Shown here piece by piece: positions 4,395 through 29,239 of a stretch of 64,000 nucleotides of DNA. This stretch comes from a bacterium (lineage in GTDB: Bacteria; Patescibacteriota; Minisyncoccia; Phycocordibacterales; SBAW01): positions 24,373 through 88,372 of the forward strand of contig JBAXFJ010000002.1 in the NCBI GenBank assembly GCA_037139975.1, given 5' to 3'. Made by a program: the position numbers and the translations under genes. The first letter of the stretch is position 1. The number at the start of each line of letters is the position of its first letter. Below the pieces are notes generated by a model. That model made no database searches and was not told the origin of the DNA. It saw nothing but the letters and a program-made list of their open reading frames with translations.

Positions 4395-4745
4395 GTTCTC
4401 AAATTTAAAAGTGCAAGAACACAAAAAATCCTCCAACTACTTAGAGGGCTAATTTTCTCGTTAAATCATTTAATAACATTACTTTGACAATAATTCTCGA
4501 CCTTTTCTATGTGTGCCGTGCTGTTGTTTAGGTTCGACACTACTTTTGCTCCTCCTGCTAATATTACTTCAGGCCGGCTAATTTCACAACGTGACATAAG
4601 GTGGATAACTAAAGATGAAGCGTTCAATAATAAGGATTTCTTATCGTATAAGTGTGATCTAGTGTCACCTTTTGCATCACATCGGTTGCTTCCACTATTG
4701 GTGAGAGCTTGCGAAAGTTTTTACAAACAAAGTAAAAACCATAAA

Positions 4746-4979
4746 ATGTCCCACCCATTTGCAGCGATGTTTGAGAAGGCGTTGAGGAAGAGTAGGGGCG
4801 AAGCCCAGGGCCAGGAAAATTTGGTATTGGAAGAGGCGCGGGGGTTGCACAAAAAGGGGTACAGCCCACAAGAGATTTATGAGGTGCTGGCCAAGTTGCA
4901 CCGCGAGCTACTCGCCCCCGCAGACCTCGAGTTGGTGGGCGAAGCGCTCGACGAATTCGCGACGTATATAGGGGATTAG
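4746..4979 (+). CDS. hypothetical small protein (77 aa)
   Basis: GC-rich 3' part of ORF 4509..4979 (MSHPFAAMFEKALRKS...EALDEFATYIGD). The upstream part is AT-rich and probably non-coding. Confidence 0.3.
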   Translation: MSHPFAAMFEKALRKSRGEAQGQENLVLEEARGLHKKGYSPQEIYEVLAKLHRELLAPADLELVGEALDEFATYIGD

Positions 4980-5266
4980 TGTATGGGGTAGGGGCAAAGG
5001 CATCGTATACTGTTGCTATGGAAAATGAATCAAATGAATCGTCCGAGATGGCGCGGGTGATAGAGCAGCTCGAGCTGGCAAACCAGCAGTTGGCCAAACA
5101 AAATTCGTTTAAGCGGATGTTTGCGGTCGGCATTGTCTATGGCATAGGCTTTTTTGTTGGTTCGGCGATTTTGGCCACCATCGCGCTGGGCATCATTGGC
5201 CCCTATGTTGGCAAAATCGGCTGGGTGCGCCAGTCATTCCAAACGGGCTCGGAGCTCAAGCGGTAA
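4979..5266 (+). CDS. hypothetical small membrane protein (coiled-coil + 1 TM)
   Basis: ORF with TM segment FAVGIVYGIGFFVGSAILATIALGIIGPYVG. The start overlaps the previous stop. Confidence 0.35.
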   Translation: MYGVGAKASYTVAMENESNESSEMARVIEQLELANQQLAKQNSFKRMFAVGIVYGIGFFVGSAILATIALGIIGPYVGKIGWVRQSFQTGSELKR

Positions 5267-5402
5267 TAGTAAAAAGAATTATTATTGAGAAGACTCGCTA
5301 CTATTTTGCAGAAGGTGGTGTCAGCTACACTCCTATTTTAAATTAAAAAATGCTTGTTTTACTGGGTCAAGGCATAATTTGCCTTATGTTTATTGGTTTT
5401 TT

Positions 5403-5433
5403 TTGCCACATACACCAAAAAGTATGGTATAGT
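5403..5433 (+). promoter_or_regulatory. candidate sigma70-type promoter (TTGCCA ... TGgTATAGT extended -10) upstream of the rlpA-like gene
   Basis: TTGCCA at 5403-5408 and TGgTATAGT at 5425-5433, ~80 nt upstream of the CDS start. Confidence 0.3.
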
Positions 5434-5513
5434 ACTGGTAGAGGAGCTTGAAAACGCCCACAGCCTTTGTGCGGGCACCTTCAAACTCCTCCCCACTGTA
5501 ATGGAGTAAGGTA

Positions 5514-5960
5514 TTGTTACGTTTTCTGTGTGTGTTGGCGTGCGTGCTGTGCAGCCCTGTTTTGGGTGCTGCGTGTGCGGCAGATGCGTCAAAAAAGTCA
5601 GTCTATACCACGGCAACGTGGTATGACTATAACGAAGGGCCGAAGCGGAGGATGGCAAACGGTGAAGTATTCGACAAAACCAAGCCGACGATTGCCCACG
5701 CCACTCTTCCACTCAACACACGAGCTTGGCTTGTAAATGTGAATGATCCAACCAAATCTATCGAGGTTGTGGTCGCCGACCGTCAAGCACGGTGGGTCCG
5801 GCAAGGTTGGCCCAACCGCGCAGTTGATGCAAATCTGCACGTCGCTCGGGCGCTTGGTTTTGGTCCTGGCGCAAACAAAGACTTGCTTCGTATTCGGGTC
5901 GAAGTGCTTTCTCTTCCTGTGGGGCACGCGCCCCCGAGCCGACGCAAAAGCAGCGGCTGA
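5514..5960 (+). CDS. RlpA-like double-psi beta-barrel (DPBB) lipoprotein/secreted protein
   Basis: N-terminal signal peptide. TATWYDYNEG...ANGEVFD...TIAHATLPLNTRAWLVNVNDPTKSIEVVVADRQ matches the RlpA DPBB pattern (ASWYG...TA.GE.fd...AAH..LP..t.v.V.N..NG.sv.vrI.DRGP). Confidence 0.6.
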   Translation: MLRFLCVLACVLCSPVLGAACAADASKKSVYTTATWYDYNEGPKRRMANGEVFDKTKPTIAHATLPLNTRAWLVNVNDPTKSIEVVVADRQARWVRQGWPNRAVDANLHVARALGFGPGANKDLLRIRVEVLSLPVGHAPPSRRKSSG

Positions 5961-5988
5961 CGGTATGTAGTGTTCTTTCCGCCCACAT

Positions 5989-6028
5989 GGCGAGCTCCCT
6001 TCCGTTGGGCTCGCCATTTTTCTTTTTT
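5989..6028 (+). terminator. rho-independent terminator after the rlpA-like gene
   Basis: GGCGAGC-13 nt loop-GCTCGCC followed by ATTTTTCTTTTTT. Confidence 0.7.
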
Positions 6029-6051
6029 AGATGAGGTAGAATAGAAAGTAT

Positions 6052-6918
6052 ATGGTCCGAGCAATCCCAGAGTCACGGCTGCGCGAGCGGCGCCGCAGGC
6101 GCCGCGCCTTTGCGCTTGGTCTTTTGTGTGCGTCGACTGTTTTGTTGTGTGTTGGTTTTGTGGCGCTTTCGCACGTGGCATTTTTGCGAGTCACTTCCGT
6201 TACGGTGTCGGGCACCAATGATGGTTTAGCAGAGCAGATACAAGCTTTTGTTAAAAGTAAAATGTCGGGCGCATACTTGCACCTCTTTGCGCGGGACAAC
6301 ATATTGCTGTACCCAAAAAGCAGCATAACCAAAGACCTGTCTGTTCAATTTCCTGAATTAAGAGATGTATGGGTGCGCACGGCAGACGTGCACCACGTTG
6401 AAGTCAGCGTGACCGAACGTCGGCCTGTTGCGCTGTGGTGCGACTCTGGGGTCGGGTCTCAATCCCAATCTCAGTCTTTGTCGGTCTCACCGTTTTTGTC
6501 GCAAGACACGTGTTTTTTCCTTGATGAAAATGGCCTTGCATACAAAGCTGTCGGCGACACCCCCACAACAAACTATCAAAAATATTTTGGCCCTGCCGCA
6601 ACAACCACGCTTCCCCGACAATATCTGACGCCCGATCAGTTTGTGTCGCTGTTTGCATTTGTTCAAGCGCTTGGTGGCAAGGTGCCGAACGAAACCATCG
6701 CTCACGTTTCTGTGGGTGGGCAGGGGAATGCGAATATTTCTTTTGCCAGCGGATTTGAGGTGCGCTTCTTACTCAGCGACAATGCGGGGGATGTGTTGCA
6801 GCGGTTTGTGTTGGCGCAAACAGCGGCACCATTTAGCACGCACAAGCTTTCTGACTTTTCCTATCTTGACCTGCGCTTTGGTGACAAGATTTACTATAAA
6901 TTAAAGGCGACTCCTTAG
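6052..6918 (+). CDS. cell-division protein FtsQ/DivIB-like (POTRA domain)
   Basis: Arg-rich N-terminus, a single TM (FALGLLCASTVLLCVGFVAL), then VTSVTVSGTN...VHHVEVSVTERRPVALW, which resembles the FtsQ POTRA pattern (v.G...v....P.a.W). Confidence 0.5.
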   Translation: MVRAIPESRLRERRRRRRAFALGLLCASTVLLCVGFVALSHVAFLRVTSVTVSGTNDGLAEQIQAFVKSKMSGAYLHLFARDNILLYPKSSITKDLSVQFPELRDVWVRTADVHHVEVSVTERRPVALWCDSGVGSQSQSQSLSVSPFLSQDTCFFLDENGLAYKAVGDTPTTNYQKYFGPAATTTLPRQYLTPDQFVSLFAFVQALGGKVPNETIAHVSVGGQGNANISFASGFEVRFLLSDNAGDVLQRFVLAQTAAPFSTHKLSDFSYLDLRFGDKIYYKLKATP

Positions 6919-17559: not shown

Positions 17560-17772
17560 AAGGGAAATTATGACTATCAAACCACGGTAGCATCAGTGAT
17601 TTCTGTTGCTCGTCGGGCTAAGGCAATATTCGAAAGTTCTGAAGCGCACGAAAAACGAGCATTTCTCAACTATTTACTTCAGAACCCGACTGTATCGGGC
17701 AAAACCCTTGTATTTACAATGCGAAAACCCTTTGATGCAGTACTCGAAATAGCTAACTGTCCTCTCGGGCTG
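17560..17772 (+). pseudogene. remnant of a large-serine-recombinase 3' end (copy A1, ~70 codons)
   Basis: Encodes ...AKAIFESSEAHEKRAFLNYLLQNPTVSGKTLVFTMRKPFDAVLEIANCPLG, matching the C-terminus of the truncated recombinase at 19.5-19.7 kb. 17633-17772 is ~97% identical to 19603-19740 at DNA level. No upstream recombinase body. Confidence 0.6.
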
Positions 17773-18457: not shown

Positions 18458-18734
18458 TGGGTGACTCCTTGTCTGAGGAAGTAGAAGTAACTGCTGTCTC
18501 TTGTAAGATAATACAATGTAATGTGATAAATAGCAAGTAGACGTGATGTTTCAAGCAATGAAATGAGTGTGTTTGATTCGATATGTTCTACTTCTGCACG
18601 GACAGTTGGCAATCAGATGTTTCCTTGCCCGTATCGGTAGTTACCCTAAACCAAGTTCATCTCTTTCTGTTGCCAACTGCAGTTGCATTTCAAGTTCATC
18701 TATTACGATTTGTATAGACTCATGGACGGGATTT

Positions 18735-19796
18735 GTGAGGATTGGTTATAGGAATATTGTACTGGATGCAGAGAAGCGATTGCGAAAGGATATAGTTCTT
18801 GACCCTGAGCGGGCGCACCTTATTGAACGTCTCTTTCAGTTGTACGCCTCTGGTAATTATTCGGTTACGACCGCTCTTGCTGAAATTACACGTCTCGGCC
18901 TCCGTAGCCACACTGGCAATCCTCTTGCTCGTAGCAATATTGAGACAATTCTAAAAGACCCTTTTTATTATGGAATGGCTCGCTCAAAAAAATACGGTAA
19001 CTACCCGCACCGCTATCCGCACATCATTACCCGAGAGCTGTTCGAGCAATGCCAAGAGGTATTTCGTGGCCGCCACAAATCGACCTCCAAGCCAGTATCC
19101 GACCTGTTTATGTTTAAAGGGCTTCTGCATTGTGCTAACTGCGGTTGCCTTATGACCCCCGAGCGTAAAAAGGGCTATCTTATCTACTATTCCTGCACGA
19201 ATGCCAGAGGAGTATGCAAGCGGTTATATATACCCGAACAAACCCTCCTAAAGCCCGTACAGAGCGTATTTGAGGCGTTTGAGGCAATGCCCAAGGAAGT
19301 TGAGGAGCGGCTCTTGAGCGAGCTTAGAGCTTCAAACGAGGGCGAAGTTGAGTACCACAAGAAAGAGCTTGTTCGCATCCGCGCCGAGTACGACCGGACG
19401 CAGACCCGCGCTAACTCGCTGATGGACTTGCTCATCGACAAGAGTATTACTAAGGATGATTATGACAAAAAACTGCAAGAGCTAAAAGATAAACAATACC
19501 GTTTGGACATCGAAGCCGAAGAGCATACTCGCGCCGACCATGACTACAAACTCACTATCTCACAAGTGTTTTCTCTTTCTCGAAGGATGGGCGAAATTTT
19601 TAAAAGTTCTGAGGTGCACGAAAAACGAGCATTTCTCAACTATTTACTTCAGAACCCGACTGTATCGGGCAAAACCCTTGTATTTACAATGCGAAAACCC
19701 TTTGATGCAGTACTCGAAATAGCTAACTGTCCTCTCGGGCTGTGTCTCCTGAACAAAATCCGAACTTTTTTCCAAAACAATCCAACTGCTGACTAA
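18735..19796 (+). pseudogene. large serine recombinase lacking its N-terminal catalytic resolvase domain (copy A2)
   Basis: From GYRNIVLDAEKRLRKD onward it aligns with residues ~150-500 of the intact recombinase at 27690..29198 (recombinase domain, Cys zinc ribbon CANCGC...C..C, coiled-coil). The first ~55 codons of ORF 18567..19796 are unrelated junk with stops upstream. The catalytic-Ser region is absent. Confidence 0.6.
19603..19740 (+). repeat. direct repeat of recombinase 3' end (A2), ~97% identical to 17633-17772 (A1)
   Basis: Direct comparison. Both copies end ...cctctcgggctg, and the flanks differ after that. Confidence 0.8.
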
Positions 19797-20011
19797 TCGC
19801 ACGCGCGGAGCGCGTGGTGACTTGAAACTGCCTCGTACGCTCCGATTGAGTGGTGAAGCGAACCAATGCGCCTCGGACACGCTCGCGGACTCGCGTGTGC
19901 AAAAACCAAAAAATTTCCTTGCATTTTCCTCGCGTCTCCTCCCCCCACCCCTCCACCGCGAAGCGGAAAAAGAAATGGAAAGGAAATTTTTGGTTTTGCT
20001 TCGCCGTTTCA
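19741..20011 (+). repeat. element X, copy 1: ~270-bp GC-rich sequence, perfect inverted repeat of 27204-27472
   Basis: The reverse complement of 27204-27472 matches 19741-20011 essentially base for base (tgtctcctgaacaaaatccgaac ... ggttttgcttcgccgtttca). It contains several hairpins (CACGCGC-GGA-GCGCGTG and ACACGC...GCGTGT) and a C-rich tract (cctccccccacccctccacc). Confidence 0.85.
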
Positions 20012-20354: not shown

Positions 20355-23300
20355 TTAATTTAATCCATCGGCCATCAATTCTGCTTGTTTCAAGACATTT
20401 TCAGTCGCAATCAACTGTTCGTCTGGTGGATAGCCATATTTATTCAAGATTCTTTTCACATCACGACGTAATTTCGCGCGAACATTTTCTTTTAGTGTCC
20501 AGTCAATCGTTGCATTGCCTTTGACACTTTTTAGCACCTCCATTGCAATAACTGCTAACTGCTTGTCGCCAAGCACCTCTTTCGCACTCTCACTGTTGGC
20601 AAGGGCATCGTAGAAAGCGAGCTCATCCTCGTTCAAATCCAAACCCTCTCCTCTTTTGTCTGACTGCCTGATGTCTTTAGCGATTTTTATCAATTCTTCT
20701 ATGACCTGTGCTGAAGTCAAAAGATTGTTTTGATACTTACGGATAGCATTCTCAAGCATTTCAGACAATTTCTTGCTCTGAATAAAGTTCTTTCTTGTTC
20801 TCGTTCTTATTTCGTCATTTAAGAGTTTCTTTAGAAGTTCAAGTGCAATATTTTTTCGCTCCATATGCCGTACTTCTTCCAAAAATTCATCTGAAAGAAT
20901 AGAAATGTCTGGCTTCTTAATTCCAGCCGCATCAAATACATCAACAATACCTTCAGAGACAACTGCCTTATCTACTATTTGCCGAATGGCTGTTTCAATT
21001 TCCGCATCAGACTTGCCTCCGCCTGATGGTTCAAACTTTGTCAGACGCGCTTTAATTGCTTGGAAAAAGCCAACTTCGTCTTTAAGTTCCATAGCTTTTA
21101 AATTTGGGACAGACAGCGCAAATGCTTGCGACAATAAACCAACTTGTTTTGTATATCTATTTTTTCCGTCTTCTAATCCCAAAATATGTTCTTGCGCCTC
21201 AAGAATAATCGTCAGTTTTGCTCGCGTGTCACTGACAAAGTATTTTTTATAATCAAAACCATTAAACATCTGCTCAACGATTTCAAACTTCTCCAGCAGA
21301 GTCGCCACGGCTTCATTTTGATCAAGAGTAGGTGCACCTTGTCCGCCACTTGCTGTATAGGTTGCGAGAGCCGACTTCAAATCAGAAGCAATGCCAATAT
21401 AGTCCACAATCAAACCGCCCGGCTTATCCTTAAACACCCTATTCACACGAGCAATGGCTTGCATAAGATTGTGTCCGCGCATTGGCTTGTCCACATACAT
21501 CGTATGTAAACACGGCACATCAAAACCAGTCAGCCACATATCCCGCACGATAACCAAACGAAGTGGGTCCTTCTCGTCCTTAAATCGCTCACCAATAGCT
21601 TTTCGGTCTTGTTTGCTTGTACTGTGCGTTTGCCAATTTTCAGGATCAGAAGATGAAGAAGTCATTACCACTTTTATTGCGCCTTTTTTAAAATCAGTAT
21701 CGTGCCAATCAGGACGAATTTTAATAATCTCTTCGTACAGTTCAACCGCAATCCGACGACTCATACACACAATCATTCCTTTACCTTCAAAAGCTTCTCG
21801 TCTTTTTTCAAAGTGATCCACCACATCAGCAGCAACTACAGCTAATCTGTCTCTGTGACCAACAATGGCCTCTAATTGTGCCCATTTTGCTTTCGCCTTG
21901 TCTTTTGCATTACTTTCTTCACACTCAGTAATTGATTCCACCTCTTCATCGAGTTTAGCCGCTTCTTCTGGCTTCAGATGCACTTTTGCCAGTCGTGATT
22001 CATAATAAATACGCACAGTCGCGCCATCTTCTACTGCTTGTGCGATATCATAAACATCAACATAGCTTCCGAACACCGCCGGTGTTGAGGCGTCTTCTTT
22101 TTCAATAGGTGTTCCGGTAAATCCAATAAACGATGCTGCAGGTAAAGCATCACGTAAATATTTTGCAAAGCCATATTTCGTAAATATTTCACCATCTTTC
22201 TCGGTGGTCTTTGCACCAAATCCATACTGACTACGATGCGCTTCATCAGCGATAACAATAATATTTTTTCTATCAGATAATAAATCAAAATTCACAGCAC
22301 CGTCTTCAGGGAAAAACTTTTGAATAGTTGAAAAGATAATTCCTCCACCAGCAACTTTCAAAAGCTCTTTCAAATTTTGTCGATTTTCAGCTTTTACTGG
22401 ATCTTGCCTGAGCAATTGCTTACATCCAGCGAAAGTATCGAAAAGCTGTTCGTCCAAATCGTTTCTGTCAGTAATAACCACAATCGTTGGATTGTTCAAT
22501 TTTAAAACTGTCTTTCCAGTATAGAAAACCATCGAGAGAGATTTTCCACTTCCTTGCGTATGCCACACGACGCCGGCTTTTCTGTCGCCGTTTTCACTAG
22601 ATGCCACAAGTGTCTTTTCAATCGCCTTATTCACCGCAAAATACTGATGATACGCCGCGATTTTTTTGACAGTAATAACCGATGCCAAACCAGTTTTTTC
22701 ATCTTCTTTTTTTGTTTTTTCAAATACCACAAAATACCCGACAAGATCCAGAAGCACTTGTTTGTTCAACATTCCCTTTGTCAGTGTTTCAATCTGTGGA
22801 ACAGTCGCCTTGTCTTCTTTGTATCCGTCGCTCGATTTCCACGCGAGGAAACGAGAAATATCCGATGAAATAGTTCCCATTTTGGCATCCAGACCATCAG
22901 ACGCCACCAAGGCGGCGTTATAGTAGAAAAGTGAAGGAATGGCGTTTTTGTAATTCTGTAGTTGCGTAAAGGCTTTGGCAACGGTAGCATTTTCATCCAC
23001 CGGATTTTTGAGTTCAATCACCACCAGTGGTAAACCATTTACAAACAAAACCACATCTGGTCGCTTTGTAATATTATTTTCCGTCACCGTGAATTGATTG
23101 CACACTATAAATTCATTGTTCTCGACATTGTCAAAGTCCACCAGTCGCACTTTGTCGCCCTTGATGCCATCCGCTCCCAACACTTCTACTTCTATGCCTT
23201 CGGTGAGCAGGCGATGAAAAGCTTCATTGTTGTCCATCAAGTTTTGGCTCGGCAAGTTGAGCACCATGCGGAGCGCCTGCTCTTTGGCCTCATCCGCAAT

Positions 23301-23468
23301 AGTGGGATTGAGAGTATCAATCGCATGCTTCAAGCGATTCCTCAAAACCACCTGTCCCAAATCAGTGCGTTCTAACTCTTGATCCTCCGGCGACAAATAC
23401 TGCCAACCTTGATTTTCCAAAAGCTCGATGACTAATTCTTCAATTGTTGATTCAAATATTTTAGTCAT
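20355..23468 (-). CDS. hsdR: Type I restriction enzyme, R subunit
   Basis: 1037 aa. SF2 helicase motifs (GSGKS-like [15 protein letters not shown] box [11 protein letters not shown]) and an N-terminal nuclease region, typical of HsdR. Confidence 0.9.
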
Positions 23469-23479
23469 AAATTATATTT

Positions 23480-24091
23480 TTACTTGTCATCAATTTCTCT
23501 GTTTTGAAAATCCACCAAAGCTTCTTTGTATGCTTCGTAATCTGTGGCATACAAAACCTTACTTGGTAATAATGTTATTTTACCAAAGGTAATTTTTTCA
23601 TAATCTTCATCAAATGAATCGTTAAAATCTGTATTCTCTTCATATTTGATTTGAATATCAAAAACAGCCTCTCGTATTTCTCTTTCTGATTTTGCTTGCT
23701 CAACTTTTTCAGTATATTCAATCTTTCTTAGGACCGAACGTTTTTCCATCTGGTTTTCTTCATGCTTCTGATAAAACTTTTTAGAAACAAGAGAAAGCCA
23801 CCATACAAACACAAAAGAAGAAGTAAATGGAATTATGAAAAGATGCAAAACACTTAATACATCAAAACGATACATTTGTGCCATGTAATCCACTTTCAGG
23901 ATTTGCTGCGTTTTCAGAATAGTCTCCTGGTCTGCAAAAAATAGTGTATATACAAACTTCCAATTTGTGACAATCCATGAAATAAGAAAATAAAAATACA
24001 TCGGACTAAAAAGTCGGTCTTGTATTATTTCCCCAGCTTTTTCAAAAGCTTTTGAAGTTGTTTCTGTAATTTTTGATAGTGAGTTTTCCAT
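23480..24091 (-). CDS. hypothetical two-TM membrane protein embedded in the Type I R-M operon (function unknown)
   Basis: 203 aa. TM1 SPMYFYFLISWIVTNWKFVYTLFF, TM2 VLSVLHLFIIPFTSSFVFVWWLSLV, then a charged ~100-aa C-terminal domain. 12 bp after hsdR and 4 bp before hsdS. Confidence 0.5.
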   Translation of the reverse strand: MENSLSKITETTSKAFEKAGEIIQDRLFSPMYFYFLISWIVTNWKFVYTLFFADQETILKTQQILKVDYMAQMYRFDVLSVLHLFIIPFTSSFVFVWWLSLVSKKFYQKHEENQMEKRSVLRKIEYTEKVEQAKSEREIREAVFDIQIKYEENTDFNDSFDEDYEKITFGKITLLPSKVLYATDYEAYKEALVDFQNREIDDK

Positions 24092-24094
24092 AAC

Positions 24095-25360
24095 TTAATT
24101 ATTAAACCCTTTAACACGAACCTCACCTTTCATTAATTTTGGCAAAAGGGTATCGCGGAGAGCGGAGAGGGTTTGGATTTGGAAACAATTACCAGATATT
24201 TTTTCCATAATAGGATCTGCTAACATAAAATATTTTTCTAATACACTTTTTGTTGGGATTAAAAAATCAAAATTATTGACATCATTTTTATTGATATGTT
24301 GCTGAGCCCCACCAGTGGCAGTATTTATAATATTTGAGACATTTTCCACCATCCAATAGTAAAGATAAGAAGAAGAAAATTTCTCATTCGGCAAAAGCCC
24401 TATAACTGATTGATTTCCGGCTGACTCAATTTCCAAGCGACTAATTTGCCCAAGAGTTGCTCCAGTAATTGCAATAACAACCGTTCCTTTCGGCATGAGT
24501 TTCGCTGCTGACTCCTCAAGAGCTTTTTTGGTGATATATGCGGATGGTTCATATATTCTAAAATCATTAACCTTTCCAGAATTTATCCAAGGAACTGTTC
24601 CGTCCTCCCAATACTCTTTTTTTTCTGTATTTGGAGTTCCTCCCAAAATTGTTTGTATTTCATCCCCCAACTTCCCAACTATCCATCCCTCTGGAATTTG
24701 GCTGAGTTCTAAATCAATCATTTTGCGGGTAGCACCGGGAAAATTAAAATTTACAAACCACTCTTTAAAAATCACTTGCGCAATAGCTTCAAGGGTTTTG
24801 TTCTGCTCACGTAAAAGCTCAACCTTGCTATCCAAAGACGACAACACTGCCGCAATGACACGCTGTTCGGAGAGTTCAGGAATCGTAAGTGAAAGACCCT
24901 TCAGCTTAGTAATAGTATATGCTTCTTGAGTAGAACCAATTTTTGCATATGATAAAATTTCTTTTCCCTGTGGAGAAACTATCCAATAAAAAAGAAATTT
25001 CGGAAGCAAATCTTTATAGTTTCGGAACCAAGTCAAATTTCCATCTTTAAAATAAAACTTGAGATCTCTTTCCACCAAGTAAGGATTCCCGAGTGTTCCA
25101 ACTGAGGTTAGTAAAATATCATTTTCTTCAGGGACTCCAAAATTATTTTTTATATCATTATATTTTTCTTCAGATATAAATAATTCAGTTGATATATTGT
25201 GTCCATTATATTTTTCTGTAATTTCTTTCCCTCTAAAAAATGGGATACCAAAAGTTTTGTATTCTTCGGCAAAAATCCTCTTTGACGACGTAATCTCTGC
25301 CACCTTTCCCAATGTCGTCATTTTCCAGCCTTTTGGAATTGTAGAAGTTTGATCTGCCAT
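24095..25360 (-). CDS. hsdS: Type I restriction-modification specificity subunit
   Basis: 421 aa with two target-recognition-domain halves separated by conserved repeat regions (LSEQRVIAAVLSSLDSKVELLREQNKTLEAIAQVIFKEWF and LPKLMKGEV). Confidence 0.85.
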   Translation of the reverse strand: MADQTSTIPKGWKMTTLGKVAEITSSKRIFAEEYKTFGIPFFRGKEITEKYNGHNISTELFISEEKYNDIKNNFGVPEENDILLTSVGTLGNPYLVERDLKFYFKDGNLTWFRNYKDLLPKFLFYWIVSPQGKEILSYAKIGSTQEAYTITKLKGLSLTIPELSEQRVIAAVLSSLDSKVELLREQNKTLEAIAQVIFKEWFVNFNFPGATRKMIDLELSQIPEGWIVGKLGDEIQTILGGTPNTEKKEYWEDGTVPWINSGKVNDFRIYEPSAYITKKALEESAAKLMPKGTVVIAITGATLGQISRLEIESAGNQSVIGLLPNEKFSSSYLYYWMVENVSNIINTATGGAQQHINKNDVNNFDFLIPTKSVLEKYFMLADPIMEKISGNCFQIQTLSALRDTLLPKLMKGEVRVKGFNN

Positions 25361-25362
25361 AA

Positions 25363-26910
25363 TTATTCTAAATTAAACCCAACATTTTTGAGTTGTTTTT
25401 TTATTTCTTCATCCAATTTCTTTTCTTCGGCCATCTGCTCTGCGAGTTTAGTGGTCAATCCAGCGATTTTGTCGGCAAACGGAATACCGTCGTCAATTTC
25501 ATCTTCTATACCGACATATCTTCCCGGAGTAAGAACAAAATTATGTTTGGTGATTTCCTCTATGCCCGCTGATTTGCAAAAACCTTTGATGTCTTTGTAT
25601 TTACCATCGCGCTTGCGCCACTCATGATAGGTGCCGGCGACTTTTGCCATATCGTCTTCTGAAAATTCACGGTGTGTTTTGTCTGCCATGTGGCCGACTT
25701 CGCTCGTGTCGATGAAAAGAATTTCTCCTGTGCGCTTCCTGTCGCCATTACCTGTGCGCTTGCGCGAGATAAACCAAATACACGCCGGAATGCCAGTGTT
25801 ATAAAAAAGCTGTTTCGGAAGTGCAACGATACAATCCACCAAATCATTTTCAATCAGTGACTTTCTAATATCACCCTCATTGTTGGTCTGACTGGAAAGT
25901 GAGCCGTTCGCAAGCACACACGCCATTACACCATGTGGTGAGAGGTGGTAGATCATGTGCTGAAGCCACGCATAGTTGGCATTTGAAGCTGGAGGCATAC
26001 CGTATTGCCAACGTGGATCATTTTGGAGAAGTTGCCCAGACCAGTCGCTGTCATTGAAAGGCGGATTTGCTAAGACAAAATCGGCTTTAAGGTCTTTATG
26101 TGTGTCATTCAAAAATGAGCCTTCAGTGTTCCATTTCACTTGTGAGCCATCAATGCCACGAATAGCAAGGTTCATTCGGCACAAGCGGTATGTTGTTTGG
26201 TTACTTTCTTGTCCGTAAATAGAAATATCCTCAACATTTCCTCGATGTTCTTTGATGAATTTTTCACTCATAATAAACATCCCGCCACTACCACAAGCTG
26301 GGTCATATACTCTGCCTTTGTATGGCTCAATCATTTCCACCATGATGCGGACGATTGATTTTGGCGTGTAGAATTGTCCGCCTTTTTTACCTTCAGCGTT
26401 TGCAAATTCACCAAGGAAATACTCATATACTCTACCGAGTAAATCTTTACTTTTTGCCGCTTCGGTACCAAGGGCGATATTGCCGACCATATCAATGAGT
26501 CCGCCAAGCGATGCTTTGTCTAGATTTGGGCGGGCGTATACTTTTGGCAAAATACCTTTGAGTGTCGGATTTTCCTTTTCTATTGCCTCCATGGCGTCGT
26601 CGAGGTCTTTTCCAATAGACGGAAGTTTGGCGCGTGAGTGAAGATATGACCAACGGGCAATTTGCGGAACGAAAAAGACATTTTCTGCGCGATATTCATC
26701 GGCGTCTTCAGGATTCGCTCCATAAAAATCATTACCACCGGCTTTTATCTTTGCATACAACTCTTCAAATGAATCCGAAATGTATTTGAGAAAGATGAGT
26801 CCAAGCACAATATGCTTATATTCTGCAGCGTCCATATTCTTGCGCAACTTATCTGCCGCCTTAAACAGCGTCTTCTCAAATGATTCTGTTTTGTTGTTTT
26901 CTTTTTTCAT
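25363..26910 (-). CDS. hsdM: Type I restriction-modification DNA methyltransferase (N6-adenine)
   Basis: 515 aa. NPPF motif ([12 protein letters not shown]), SAM-binding [10 protein letters not shown], and an HsdM N-terminal domain. Confidence 0.9.
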
Positions 26911-26912
26911 AA

Positions 26913-27110
26913 TTATTTCTGTATCAAGTCATCAACCTTGATTTCGAGTGCCTTGGCTATTTTAGACAAGGTGTCGATTGTGGGGTTTTGATTGACTCCA
27001 TTCTCAATCTTAACAATCGTATTGAGAGACAAATCGGCAAGTCGAGCGACTTTTTCGAGGGAATAGCCTTTTTCGGCTCTGATCTTTTTTAAATTGCTTG
27101 CAATGCTCAT
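26913..27110 (-). CDS. XRE-family helix-turn-helix transcriptional regulator (controller-like, first gene of the R-M operon)
   Basis: 65 aa: [32 protein letters not shown]. It ends 3 nt before the hsdM start. Confidence 0.7.
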
Positions 27111-27203
27111 ATGAAATCTTGTATAATTTAGTATATAGAATATAATATAAATTATGGATTCTTTACATTTAAATCATACCGAATTTATGAGCAAAAGTAA
27201 ATA

Positions 27204-27472
27204 TGAAACGGCGAAGCAAAACCAAAAATTTCCTTTCCATTTCTTTTTCCGCTTCGCGGTGGAGGGGTGGGGGGAGGAGACGCGAGGAAAATGCAAGGAA
27301 ATTTTTTGGTTTTTGCACACGCGAGTCCGCGAGCGTGTCCGAGGCGCATTGGTTCGCTTCACCACTCAATCGGAGCGTACGAGGCAGTTTCAAGTCACCA
27401 CGCGCTCCGCGCGTGCGATTAGTCAGCAGTTGGATTGTTTTGGAAAAAAGTTCGGATTTTGTTCAGGAGACA
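27204..27472 (-). repeat. element X, copy 2 (inverted relative to 19741-20011)
   Basis: See copy 1. The outer end joins a recombinase 3' end through the same ...ggctg|tgtctcctg junction. Confidence 0.85.
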
Positions 27473-27475
27473 CAG

Positions 27476-27606
27476 CCAAAATTCAGAATTCGTTTTTTCG
27501 CCAAAATTCGGAGCGTCGCAAAGCGACGCGACGGGGGTTTCCGCCAGAATTCGCCAAGGGTTTTTGAAATCCAAAAGAAGCGAGCGGGACGCGAGGCGGG
27601 GGTTTA
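27476..27606 (-). repeat. recombinase 3'-end repeat B' (perfect 131-bp inverted copy of 29040-29170)
   Basis: The reverse complement is identical to the last 131 bp of the intact recombinase gene (encoding NPRLASRSLLLDFKNPWRILAETPVASLCDAPNFGEKTNSEFWL). Here it continues in frame into X, giving the tail ...CLLNKIRTFFQNNPTAD. Confidence 0.85.
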
Positions 27607-27689: not shown

Positions 27690-29198
27690 ATGAACAAATT
27701 CTTTCTTTACGCCAGAAAATCTACCGACGAGCCCGATCGTCAGATTTTGAGTATTGAATCGCAGATTGACGAGTTGAAAGAATTTGCAGAGCGAGAGCAG
27801 TTAGAGATTGTTGAAACTTTTGTTGAATCACAGACCGCTAAAGAGCCGGGCAGACCTATTTTCAACAATATGCTCTCGCTCATAGAAAAAGGCAAAGCGT
27901 CGGGAATTTTAGCTTGGCATCCCGATAGATTGGCAAGAAATAGTATTGATGGTGGAAAGATAATCTATCTGTGTGACCTCGGTAAAATTAAAGAGCTAAA
28001 ATTCCCGACATTTTGGTTCGACGCTACGCCACAAGGTAAGTTTATGTTAAATATTGCTTTTGGGCAGAGCAAATACTATGTAGATAATCTTTCAGAGAAT
28101 GTGAAGCGTGGACTTCGCCAAAAAGTAAGACGAGGCGAACAAAGTGGTCAAGCACCGACGGGATATTTGAATGACAAGTTGAACAAGAAAATTGTTCCCG
28201 ACATGGAGAGATTTCGCCTCGTCAAAAAAATGTTCGAAGTCTACGCTACTGGAAATTATTCTCTGAAAGATACGAGGAATTTGCTCGCCCAAAAGGGCTT
28301 GGTGTCTAAAAATGGTAAAGTTCTCACTATTTCAAACACGCAAATGATATTGAGAAATCCTTTTTACTATGGAATGTTTTTATTTAACAAAGAACTTTAC
28401 CAAGGAAAGCACGAGCCAGCGATTTCAAAGAAACTTTTTGATAAATGCGCGGAAGTATCGGCGAGGAATGCTCACCCGATGAAGCGAGGAATTAACAAGC
28501 ATGTTTTTCGCGGAATATTTTTGTGTGAAGAATGCGGTTGTGGCATAACCAGCGAAGTGCAAAAAGGTCATACCTATTATCGTTGTACCAAAAAGAAAGG
28601 TGTCTGCACACAAAAATATATCCGCGAAGAATTCCTCGCCGAACAAGCTAATGACATTATCAAAAAAGTTTCTTTGTCGTCAGAGTGGAAAGAATTCATG
28701 CTCGCTGAACTCGACAAGGAACAAGCGAGCAGTTTCCACTCTGACGCCCTTTTCGTTCAAAATCTGAAAAATCAAATCAAAAGTGTTGAGGAGACGCTAG
28801 ACAGGCTTCTTGACGCTCATTTGGACAGCGCCATTACGAGCGAGGAGTATATCGGGAAGAAGCAAAAACTCCTCAACCAAAAGATTGATTTTTCAGAGAA
28901 ATTGAATGATTTTGAACGAAAAGGTAATCGCTGGCTCGAACTTTCTAAACAATTCATTTTAGACAGTAACCAAGCCATAATTATCGCTTCCGAAGAAAAT
29001 CTCGAAGCCAAAAGAGATTTTCTTAAAAAGATTGGCTCGAACCCCCGCCTCGCGTCCCGCTCGCTTCTTTTGGATTTCAAAAACCCTTGGCGAATTCTGG
29101 CGGAAACCCCCGTCGCGTCGCTTTGCGACGCTCCGAATTTTGGCGAAAAAACGAATTCTGAATTTTGGCTGGGATACAGGGATTCGAACCCCGATTAA
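27690..29198 (+). CDS. large serine recombinase (integrase), full length
   Basis: 502 aa. N-terminal resolvase catalytic domain (YARKSTDEPDRQ...SIESQ), recombinase domain, Cys zinc ribbon (CEECGC...C..C) and a C-terminal coiled-coil. The last 11 codons overlap tRNA-Gln on the opposite strand. Confidence 0.85.
   Translation: MNKFFLYARKSTDEPDRQILSIESQIDELKEFAEREQLEIVETFVESQTAKEPGRPIFNNMLSLIEKGKASGILAWHPDRLARNSIDGGKIIYLCDLGKIKELKFPTFWFDATPQGKFMLNIAFGQSKYYVDNLSENVKRGLRQKVRRGEQSGQAPTGYLNDKLNKKIVPDMERFRLVKKMFEVYATGNYSLKDTRNLLAQKGLVSKNGKVLTISNTQMILRNPFYYGMFLFNKELYQGKHEPAISKKLFDKCAEVSARNAHPMKRGINKHVFRGIFLCEECGCGITSEVQKGHTYYRCTKKKGVCTQKYIREEFLAEQANDIIKKVSLSSEWKEFMLAELDKEQASSFHSDALFVQNLKNQIKSVEETLDRLLDAHLDSAITSEEYIGKKQKLLNQKIDFSEKLNDFERKGNRWLELSKQFILDSNQAIIIASEENLEAKRDFLKKIGSNPRLASRSLLLDFKNPWRILAETPVASLCDAPNFGEKTNSEFWLGYRDSNPD
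29040..29170 (+). repeat. recombinase 3'-end repeat B (partner of 27476-27606)
   Basis: See B'. The copy ends ...ttttggctg, where the last bases are the complement of the tRNA-Gln CCA, discriminator and acceptor end. Confidence 0.85.
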
Positions 29199-29239
29199 AG
29201 GCTTCAAAGGCCTCTGTCCTACCATTAGACGATATCCCA
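29166..29239 (-). tRNA. tRNA-Gln (anticodon UUG), 74 nt with encoded CCA
   Basis: Reverse complement TGGGATATCGTCTAATGGTAGGACAGAGGCCTTTGAAGCCTTTAATCGGGGTTCGAATCCCTGTATCCCAGCCA. U1:A72 acceptor pair typical of tRNA-Gln, 7-bp acceptor stem, D-loop GG, anticodon loop CUUUGAA, T-loop TTCGAAT. Confidence 0.85.

Follow-up and report, generated by a model that had tools for sequence, protein, structure and literature searches.

We examined a 64 000-nucleotide (nt) stretch of a patescibacterial genome (assembly GCA_037139975.1, contig JBAXFJ010000002.1, positions 24,373 to 88,372), referred to below as the window, and in particular one gene within it, here called X, which is embedded in a Type I restriction–modification (R-M) operon. 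X is an open reading frame (ORF) of 203 amino acids with an ATG start on the minus strand (Table 1); the identical deposited sequence, MEI7719890.1, is labelled ‘hypothetical protein’ and comes from an unclassified bacterial metagenome-assembled genome (MAG). The surroundings are those of a Type I R-M system, with co-oriented hsdM, hsdS and hsdR genes that each encode diagnostic domains; HsdR scores 636 bits against TIGR00348 (cutoff 285). The order of the operon is HTH-hsdM-hsdS-X-hsdR, all on the minus strand and separated by gaps of 2, 2, 3 and 11 nt, so that X is the fourth gene and, on the coding strand, follows hsdS and precedes hsdR. A sequence-only reading of the window had placed a 203-residue ORF between hsdS and hsdR, which the ORF call and the Pfam assignments of the neighbouring genes confirm; the distances it gave, 4 and 12 bp to hsdS and hsdR, are the same 3 and 11 nt counted as offsets. 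It had also taken X to be co-transcribed with the R-M genes. Since the gaps are short, promoter-like matches precede the HTH gene and no terminator-like site was found between the operon genes on the minus strand, co-transcription of all five genes is indeed the natural reading of the predicted signals.

A search of 5.8 billion proteins recovered 42 homologues of X with 38–90% identity, none of them named and none with a Pfam domain. The family alignment contains 21 invariant residues, most of which fall in the stretch R26-x3-P30-M-Y-F-Y-F35..W39..N43-W44 and in the C-terminal 50 residues. X is therefore not a chance ORF, and the possibility of a spurious ORF, raised by the sequence-only reading, is ruled out by this conservation together with the occurrence of the same insert in related hsd loci (see below). 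No match to X was found in Pfam or NCBIfam at E ≤ 1/10, and none of the families of known anti-phage defence proteins in PADLOC-DB v2 matched at E ≤ 10. In PHROGs, the N-terminal part of the protein matched four families of unknown function (4780, 8191, 13369 and 24478), the best being phrog_4780 (5e-11). Solved structures searched with the X family profile gave chance matches only (GABA-B receptor, E ≥ 0.02), and full-length X had no match among phage records by tblastn. The earlier statement that no family can be recognised thus holds, and the profile searches in Pfam, NCBIfam, PADLOC and PHROGs assigned X to no housekeeping family. As far as these database searches show, the X family itself is new.

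To define the genomic context of the family, we used four homologues with 41–51% identity and seven genome loci, in which gene order was established by tblastn with the Hsd proteins of the window. The order hsdM..hsdS-X..hsdR was observed in 9/9 independent loci spread over four or more bacterial lineages, namely a Patescibacteria MAG, a Gracilibacteria MAG, a Gammaproteobacteria MAG, Flavobacteriaceae, Parabacteroides, Mangrovimonas spongiae, Flavobacterium hercynium and two metagenome contigs. Orthologous hsd operons therefore carry the same insert, a point that the sequence-only reading had put forward as a check. In all nine loci X starts at most ~25 nt past the end of hsdS (3–16 nt where genes have been called), and the Hsd proteins of this clade resemble those of the window (HsdM 63–75% and HsdR 54–64% identical). 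The remaining content of the operons is variable: DUF4145, GmrSD_N, SLFN/AlbA_2 or unnamed ORFs are found between hsdM and hsdS, and Bro-N or unrelated unnamed ORFs between X and hsdR. Since the related loci carry such variable extra genes, the X-type R-M clade is a scaffold for accessory defence cargo, and since X always lies directly after hsdS while all other cargo varies, X is the one constant accessory gene of this clade and not just one hotspot cargo among many. We also considered the extra genes that in some loci come after X as a conserved partner and rejected them, as they are mutually unrelated except in the two flavobacterial loci. The extra cargo in related Type I loci (DUF4145, which is a HEPN family, GmrSD_N, SLFN/AlbA_2-HATPase and Bro-N) lies at positions 4404–6822 of retrieved locus L005, 3483–4907 of L007 and L008, and 10868–11767 of L001.

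These contexts bear on the possibility that X is an independent passenger, that is, a membrane protein that acts by itself in defence or superinfection exclusion, such as a DNA-injection blocker, with no physical link to R-M. The junction between hsdS and hsdR is a recognised insertion hotspot for unrelated defence cargo, for example DarTG2 (PMC12255303), which speaks for such a passenger. The constant placement of X directly after hsdS, where other cargo differs from locus to locus, argues in the opposite direction, and none of the retrieved loci has a member of the X family (E < 1e-30 class) anywhere but in a Type I operon.

The architecture of the protein was modelled with AlphaFold2 on the family alignment (predicted local distance difference test, pLDDT, 77). 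The model consists of a helix at residues 3–26, a kinked helix at 30–51 (30–42 plus 44–51), two short helices within 55–73, a very long helix at 78–144 and an alpha/beta unit at 154–202. Kyte–Doolittle hydropathy in 19-residue windows shows two hydrophobic segments, one at approximately residues 76–104 with a peak of 2.13, and an aromatic-rich one at approximately residues 33–53 with a peak of 1.33 (family mean 1.5). Of the two transmembrane (TM) helices given in the sequence-only reading, the second (TM2) is thus borne out, and the first, being merely moderately hydrophobic, is probable only. The latter coincides with the most conserved region of the protein, in which P30, M31, Y32, F33, Y34, F35, W39, N43 and W44 are invariant. 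Across the family the mean net charge is +2.8 over the 20 residues past TM2 and −1.45 in the loop between the two segments. This distribution favours a predicted hairpin with both ends in the cytoplasm (N-in/C-in), since positive charge after TM2 and a negative loop fit a cytoplasmic C-terminus. The C-terminal 100 residues contain 18 K/R and 25 D/E and are as highly charged as had been claimed; they do not form the single domain that was envisaged, and consist instead of a coiled coil and a separate, compact acidic module. In isolation, the 58-residue C-terminal module was modelled from X-family and Abi_C-family sequences (introduced below) with a pLDDT of 90.4 and a predicted template modelling score of 0.73, as a helix-hairpin-helix-helix fold. 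It carries 7 K/R against 15–16 D/E (net charge −6 to −12) and has five invariant positions in its 58 residues, namely N157, S177, L180, D184 and Y188.

The C-terminal module links X to a second type of protein. In a tblastn search of plasmids, residues 147–195 of X matched the C-terminus of WP_310819800.1 with 55% identity (E 1e-9). This protein, annotated as an ‘abortive infection family protein’, is encoded on a Paraburkholderia plasmid by a gene located between hsdS and hsdR, and comprises the Pfam domain Abi_C (PF14355, AbiJ-type HEPN; residues 77–159, 2.7e-20) followed by the tail. When the X family was aligned with the Abi_C-plus-tail family using hhalign, the tails alone aligned, over 58 columns with 47% identity (probability 97.9%, E 3.8e-13), and share the motif Y-E-D-N..F-N..D....G....LPS.VL...D.EAYK. 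The Abi_C-plus-tail family has 734 matches at E ≤ 1e-3, of which the top 120 are all at least 78% identical, and R122, N123 and H130, corresponding to the HEPN R..N..H motif, are invariant. The arrangement HTH-hsdM-hsdS-AbiC-hsdR also occurs on a Planctomycetota chromosome and a metagenome contig, where start and stop codons overlap and the HsdR is of the same domain type. Between the X and Abi_C operons the module is 47–55% identical, HsdM ~50%, HsdR ~46% and HsdS 21–26%, and the N-terminal parts of the two proteins are unrelated. Because the identity of the module is close to that of HsdM and HsdR and far above that of HsdS, these values fit a module that diverged along with the enzyme while the N-terminal part was swapped. 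If X were a passenger, one would not expect another, otherwise unrelated protein to occupy its slot and to share with it a co-diverging module. According to passages of a HEPN survey, AbiJ-type HEPN proteins without N-terminal domains tend to sit in R-M operons (PMC3710099); those passages mention neither the tail that is shared nor that a membrane protein carries it. The definition of a portable C-terminal module that co-diverges with the enzyme and is found on two types of effector is new as far as our searches show. A scan of viral contigs with the C-module alignment found nothing. In one 190-residue protein, P0102, a stalk and C-module of the X-family type come after an N-terminal fragment that resembles dihydroorotase; this protein is probably a deletion or assembly chimera and not a true architecture.

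Overall, the operon membership of X, its conserved adjacency to hsdS, the modular homology and the co-divergence with HsdM and HsdR, all of which are observed, lead us to propose with moderate confidence that X may be a latent membrane effector of abortive infection (Abi), docked on the R-M enzyme as a modular accessory subunit of a Type I R-M clade. The sequence-only reading had suggested an effector coupled to restriction. The idea of such a coupling is strengthened by the homology of the C-terminal 58 residues to the tails of AbiJ-type HEPN proteins in the same slot, and the toxic output remains predicted.

The module also appears to be present in phages. In a Foldseek search of the full X model against BFVD, several small phage proteins were matched over ~45 aligned columns with a probability of 1.0 and E values of just 0.1–0.3. 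When phage genomes were searched by tblastn with the isolated module at a relaxed threshold, the 113-residue FV3 ORF176 (YP_007006347.1) of rV5-like phages was found, whose family extends to 209 phage records with members in Vequintavirinae, Vibrio myophages, Pseudomonas Nankokuvirus and Autographiviridae of Providencia, Proteus and Pseudomonas. Clavibacter phage CMP1 is represented both in this family and among the Foldseek matches. PS3 gp5 (QAX92425.1) and PM75 gp02 are further phage proteins with the module. Eight diverse phage members share the motif G-x-[IV]-x-F-x-PS-x-[IV]-L-x3-DP-x-A-[FY]-R, and hhalign aligned the phage family with residues 154–203 of the X family (96.3%, E 1.8e-9) and with the Abi_C tails (77.6%, E 1.9e-5). 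We consider homology of these phage proteins to the C-module probable, and put it no more firmly because each database match is weak by itself, even though two methods converge and the profile score is good. Homologues of the module in early phage proteins are, as far as our searches show, a new observation.

The phage proteins are small and very acidic (66–132 residues, net charge −12 to −35, isoelectric point (pI) ~4), fall into PHROGs 9294, 9396 and 37123, none of which has a known function, and matched no Pfam family, those of Ocr and ArdA included. In T7-like phages the gene lies 2–3 kb from the left end, after annotated host-type promoters and before replication or RNA polymerase genes, and in Proteus phage PM75 it adjoins a DNA methylase gene. 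The anti-restriction protein Ocr of T7 is encoded in the same left-end early region. This early location makes the phage proteins a candidate new family of anti-restriction or guard-trigger proteins. Only these phage homologues, and not X, bear a likeness to Ocr and ArdA, in being small, with a pI of ~4, and encoded in the early region of T7-like phages; they differ in that the phage module is a small alpha/beta fold, in contrast to the elongated DNA-like dimer of Ocr and ArdA. Aop1, a trigger of the Ronin system described below, was rejected as the identity of the phage family, as Aop1 is basic (pI ~8) and not a DNA mimic according to the Ronin paper.

The acidity of the module raises the alternative that X is a regulatory or assembly factor, which might hold back the assembly of HsdR, or ease restriction once the island on which the operon resides has entered a new host, by binding the core methyltransferase through a DNA-mimic-like module. 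A strongly acidic module recalls the DNA-mimic inhibitors of Type I enzymes, the phage homologues resemble anti-restriction proteins, and control of establishment matters on a mobile island such as that of the operon, which has serine recombinases and inverted repeats. We nevertheless consider such a role very unlikely, since it leaves unexplained both the conserved membrane module and the presence of a HEPN RNase on the same tail, and since the operon is already headed by a dedicated HTH regulator.

The N-terminal part of X has a much wider distribution than the protein as a whole. Searched against 1.84 billion cluster representatives, the X family profile gave 1,233 matches at E ≤ 1e-3, of which 22 had E < 1e-30. 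Most of the other relatives of this N-module are ~240 residues long, share residues ~13–170 and then diverge. The motif that characterises the module, R-x3-S-P-x-Y-x2-F-x3-W-x3-N-W followed by the second TM helix and the helix after it, is present in X. Among the distant relatives 28/35 match phrog_4780, and the phage PHROGs 13369 and 24478 match the module too. Ten distant relatives searched against Pfam gave sub-threshold noise only, and 35 searched against PADLOC gave scattered weak matches only. A winged-helix ending of the 240-residue relatives was considered, and we make no such claim, as its sole support is a match to Pfam HTH_45 with E 0.077.

In two cases the N-module is again found near R-M genes. 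WP_261887497.1, a hypothetical protein of 442 residues from the Vibrio aerogenes plasmid pLMG19650 (L023:6968–8296), combines an X-like N-module with a long coiled coil, and its gene is the last of an hsdR-hsdM-hsdS-DUF262-DUF262/HNH operon that encodes GmrSD and an EcoAI-type Type I system different from that of the window. A 232-residue relative with an unrelated C-terminal domain (L025:3666–4364) is encoded directly upstream of a Type II R-M system with an N6_N4 methylase and a MutH-like endonuclease, inserted after a ribosomal-protein operon. Two other contexts were a polysaccharide cluster and a region of RadC/SRAP/HNH genes. In this small sample, an association of the N-module with R-M and mobile DNA is suggestive. 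The non-R-M contexts and the relatives in phage PHROGs are what would be expected of a stand-alone passenger; weighing them with the constancy of the slot and the co-divergence of the C-module, we regard a passenger as distinctly improbable.

The N-module appears to behave as a portable functional unit, and the invariant N43, W44 and W39 inside the putative TM1 exceed what a passive anchor would need. This bears on a further alternative, in which X is a non-toxic membrane tether: the C-module would dock the R-M enzyme, and the membrane part and stalk would hold it at the inner membrane where foreign DNA enters, raising the efficiency of restriction or limiting self-restriction. The inference of a docking module holds equally for a tether, to which a membrane hairpin, a ~40-residue stalk and a small cytoplasmic head are well suited, and X accompanies complete, apparently functional R-M operons as opposed to decoys that lack hsdR. 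A tether is harder to reconcile with the same module in the same slot on a soluble HEPN RNase, which is of a toxin type. In addition, no part of X is more conserved than the membrane segment, whose invariant polar and aromatic residues, like its recurrence next to unrelated C-termini in over 1,000 proteins and its presence in phage families, are unusual for a passive anchor. We therefore think a tether unlikely, and favour the R-M-docked abortive-infection effector.

Such an effector has precedents among the systems known to be associated with Type I enzymes. The Type IC EcoprrI complex (locus prrA-prrB-prrC-prrD) keeps PrrC sequestered until Stp of phage T4 frees it (PMC3874165; PMC12707154). 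The gene for PrrC occupies the same place as X, flanked by hsdS and hsdR in a complete Type I operon, and the logic proposed here, in which a suicide effector is kept latent by the R-M enzyme and freed by a phage factor, would be the same. PrrC is a soluble protein with an ABC-ATPase and a HEPN tRNase, in contrast to X, which is a membrane protein with neither domain. No ABC-type ATPase domain of the PrrC/RloC kind was found in X with Pfam and NCBIfam at E ≤ 1/10, in agreement with the AlphaFold2 model of a helical membrane hairpin, stalk and small module; a HEPN anticodon-nuclease domain (Rx4-6H) is likewise absent, with no match to a HEPN family and no R..H motif among the invariant residues, and no sequence similarity between X and PrrC was detected.

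In the Ronin system of Escherichia coli ECOR55 (RonA, HsdS and HsdM), RonA is a 61-residue membrane protein linked to hsdS-hsdM that is lethal alone, is neutralised by HsdMS and is triggered by Ocr, ArdA or Aop1; the proposal is that HsdMS cages RonA and that binding of anti-restriction proteins leads to growth arrest without lysis (bioRxiv 10.1101/2023.04.06.535777). Like RonA, X is predicted to be a small membrane protein, and both genes are closely linked to hsdS and hsdM of a Type I system. The two differ, when compared by their features, in that RonA has one TM helix and lacks a coiled coil and C-module, whereas the 203-residue X has two hydrophobic segments, a coiled coil and a docking-type module; furthermore Ronin is a decoy without hsdR, whereas X lies in a full hsdMSR operon with hsdR 11 nt on. 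The Abi_C proteins of R-M operons, such as WP_310819800.1, share with X the slot between hsdS and hsdR, an HsdR of the T1RH-like_C type and the acidic tail of ~58 residues. Where X has a membrane module with a coiled coil, they have a soluble HEPN RNase as effector, the N-terminal ~170 residues are unrelated, and no Abi_C (PF14355) HEPN domain was found in X, which had no Pfam match and aligned with these proteins in the tail only. A final comparison is with class II holins and small two-TM phage membrane proteins, which X may resemble in its two hydrophobic segments (TM2 strong, TM1 marginal), probable N-in/C-in topology and charged, probably cytoplasmic C-terminus; relatives of its N-module occur in phage PHROGs. 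X differs from them in lying outside a lysis cassette, flanked by hsdS and hsdR, in being much longer and in having a structured C-module, and it showed no sequence match to annotated holin families in Pfam or PHROGs. X belongs in none of the PrrC, RonA and Abi_C families; it has its slot in common with PrrC and Abi_C, and its tail with Abi_C. By analogy, it probably works as an R-M guard or embedded Abi effector of the kind that these three represent.

For X and the Abi_C proteins alike, the C-module would dock its effector, a membrane module in one case and an RNase in the other, on the HsdM/HsdS complex, possibly together with HsdR, and docking would keep the effector latent. If a phage put the R-M enzyme out of action or occupied it, for instance by means of an anti-restriction protein, the effector would be released; the small acidic early phage proteins bearing the same module are possible triggers. 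Once released, X may oligomerise through its coiled coil and compromise the inner membrane, so that the infection is aborted.

Several points weigh against this proposal. We infer the toxicity of X, membrane damage and binding to Hsd subunits from comparative genomics. The position between hsdS and hsdR is by itself weak evidence, because unrelated defence cargo is known to insert often at this junction. With a hydropathy of 1.3–1.5, the first hydrophobic segment falls under the usual threshold for a TM helix, which makes TM1 probable but not certain. The phage homologues are putative triggers. Finally, a search of the 5.8-billion-protein set with the C-module alignment alone returned short fragments only and no third bacterial architecture, so that the notion of a universal docking handle rests on two host families and the phage family. 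More tentatively, then, and as a possibility that we rate below the proposal for X itself, the module may be a dedicated handle for Type I R-M enzymes fused to swappable suicide effectors, of which phages would carry free, very acidic early copies that block the enzyme, as a new class of anti-restriction protein, or displace the caged effector. If this is true, a single interface would be the battleground of defence, counter-defence and guard response.

To our knowledge, the coupling of back-up suicide effectors to R-M is understood at the molecular level only for PrrC and, in part, for Ronin, and a transferable docking element has been defined in neither. The 58-residue module thereby offers a small, concrete target for asking how Type I enzymes cage effectors. 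With it, membrane disruption as a general R-M-guarding output and the phage homologues as a new family of anti-restriction proteins or triggers become open to test. If the proposed role of X is correct, it would also provide the first function for an unannotated membrane-module superfamily of more than 1,000 clusters.

Table 1. Features of the X locus, parts of the X protein and phage genes for the C-module. Positions refer to the window, except for the phage genes, which are given as positions in the retrieved loci (L).
Feature	Position	Strand	Basis or remarks
Gene X (MEI7719890.1)	23480..24091	-	ORF, 42 homologues, family alignment, AlphaFold2 model (pLDDT 77)
X residues 29-52 (SPMYFYF..W...NW), most conserved, aromatic, moderately hydrophobic; putative TM1 or re-entrant helix	23936..24007	-	Conservation, Kyte-Doolittle hydropathy, AlphaFold2
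X residues 78-103, strong transmembrane helix TM2	23783..23860	-	Hydropathy peak 2.13; begins AlphaFold2 helix 78-144
X residues 104-145, charged helical stalk / coiled coil, 11 K/R and 10 D/E, positive beside the membrane	23657..23782	-	AlphaFold2, charge count
X residues 146-203, compact acidic C-terminal module, alpha-beta-beta-alpha-alpha	23483..23656	-	Domain model, hhalign
hsdS, specificity subunit	24095..25360	-	Pfam Methylase_S 2.2e-34; stops 3 nt ahead of X
hsdM, methyltransferase subunit	25363..26910	-	Pfam N6_Mtase 3e-114, HsdM_N
hsdR, restriction/translocase subunit	20355..23468	-	Pfam HSDR_N, SWI2_SNF2, T1R_D3-like, T1RH-like_C; 11 nt past X
HTH_3 protein, 65 residues, first gene of the operon, probable regulator	26913..27110	-	Pfam HTH_3 1.1e-15
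Two overlapping sigma-70-like promoter matches upstream of the HTH gene	27144..27201	-	Consensus scan (consensus matches only)
Left arm of 297-nt inverted repeat around the operon	19715..20011		96% complementary to 27204-27500; overlaps 3' end of recombinase ORF
Right arm of 297-nt inverted repeat around the operon	27204..27500		Pairs with left arm
Large serine recombinase, 502 residues, intact, CcrB/XisF-like	27690-29198	+	Abuts tRNA-Gln(ttg)
tRNA-Gln(ttg)	29166-29239	-	
Second serine-recombinase ORF, without N-terminal catalytic domain	18567-19796	+	Family matches from profile position ~160
Phage module gene, FV3 ORF176	L032:2396-2737		
Phage module gene	L034:2931-3131		
Phage module gene	L035:2149-2364		
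Phage module gene	L036:1778-2107		

The operon is part of a low-GC island, with a GC content of 0.36–0.42 against ~0.50. Together with the inverted repeats and serine recombinases that accompany it (Table 1), this setting is consistent with horizontal spread, as the phyletic pattern of X implies. The 502-residue serine recombinase is flanked by a perfect 132-nt inverted repeat (27473–27604 and 29040–29171), and recombinase, repeats and tRNA-Gln are likely to be the integration module of the island. The 297-nt inverted repeat encloses the whole HTH-hsdM-hsdS-X-hsdR operon and could mark an invertible segment or nested integrations. On the other side, a 203-nt direct repeat (87%; 17570–17772 and 19540–19742) duplicates part of the 3' region of the second recombinase, which, taken with the truncation of that ORF, suggests decayed or rearranged copies of the element.

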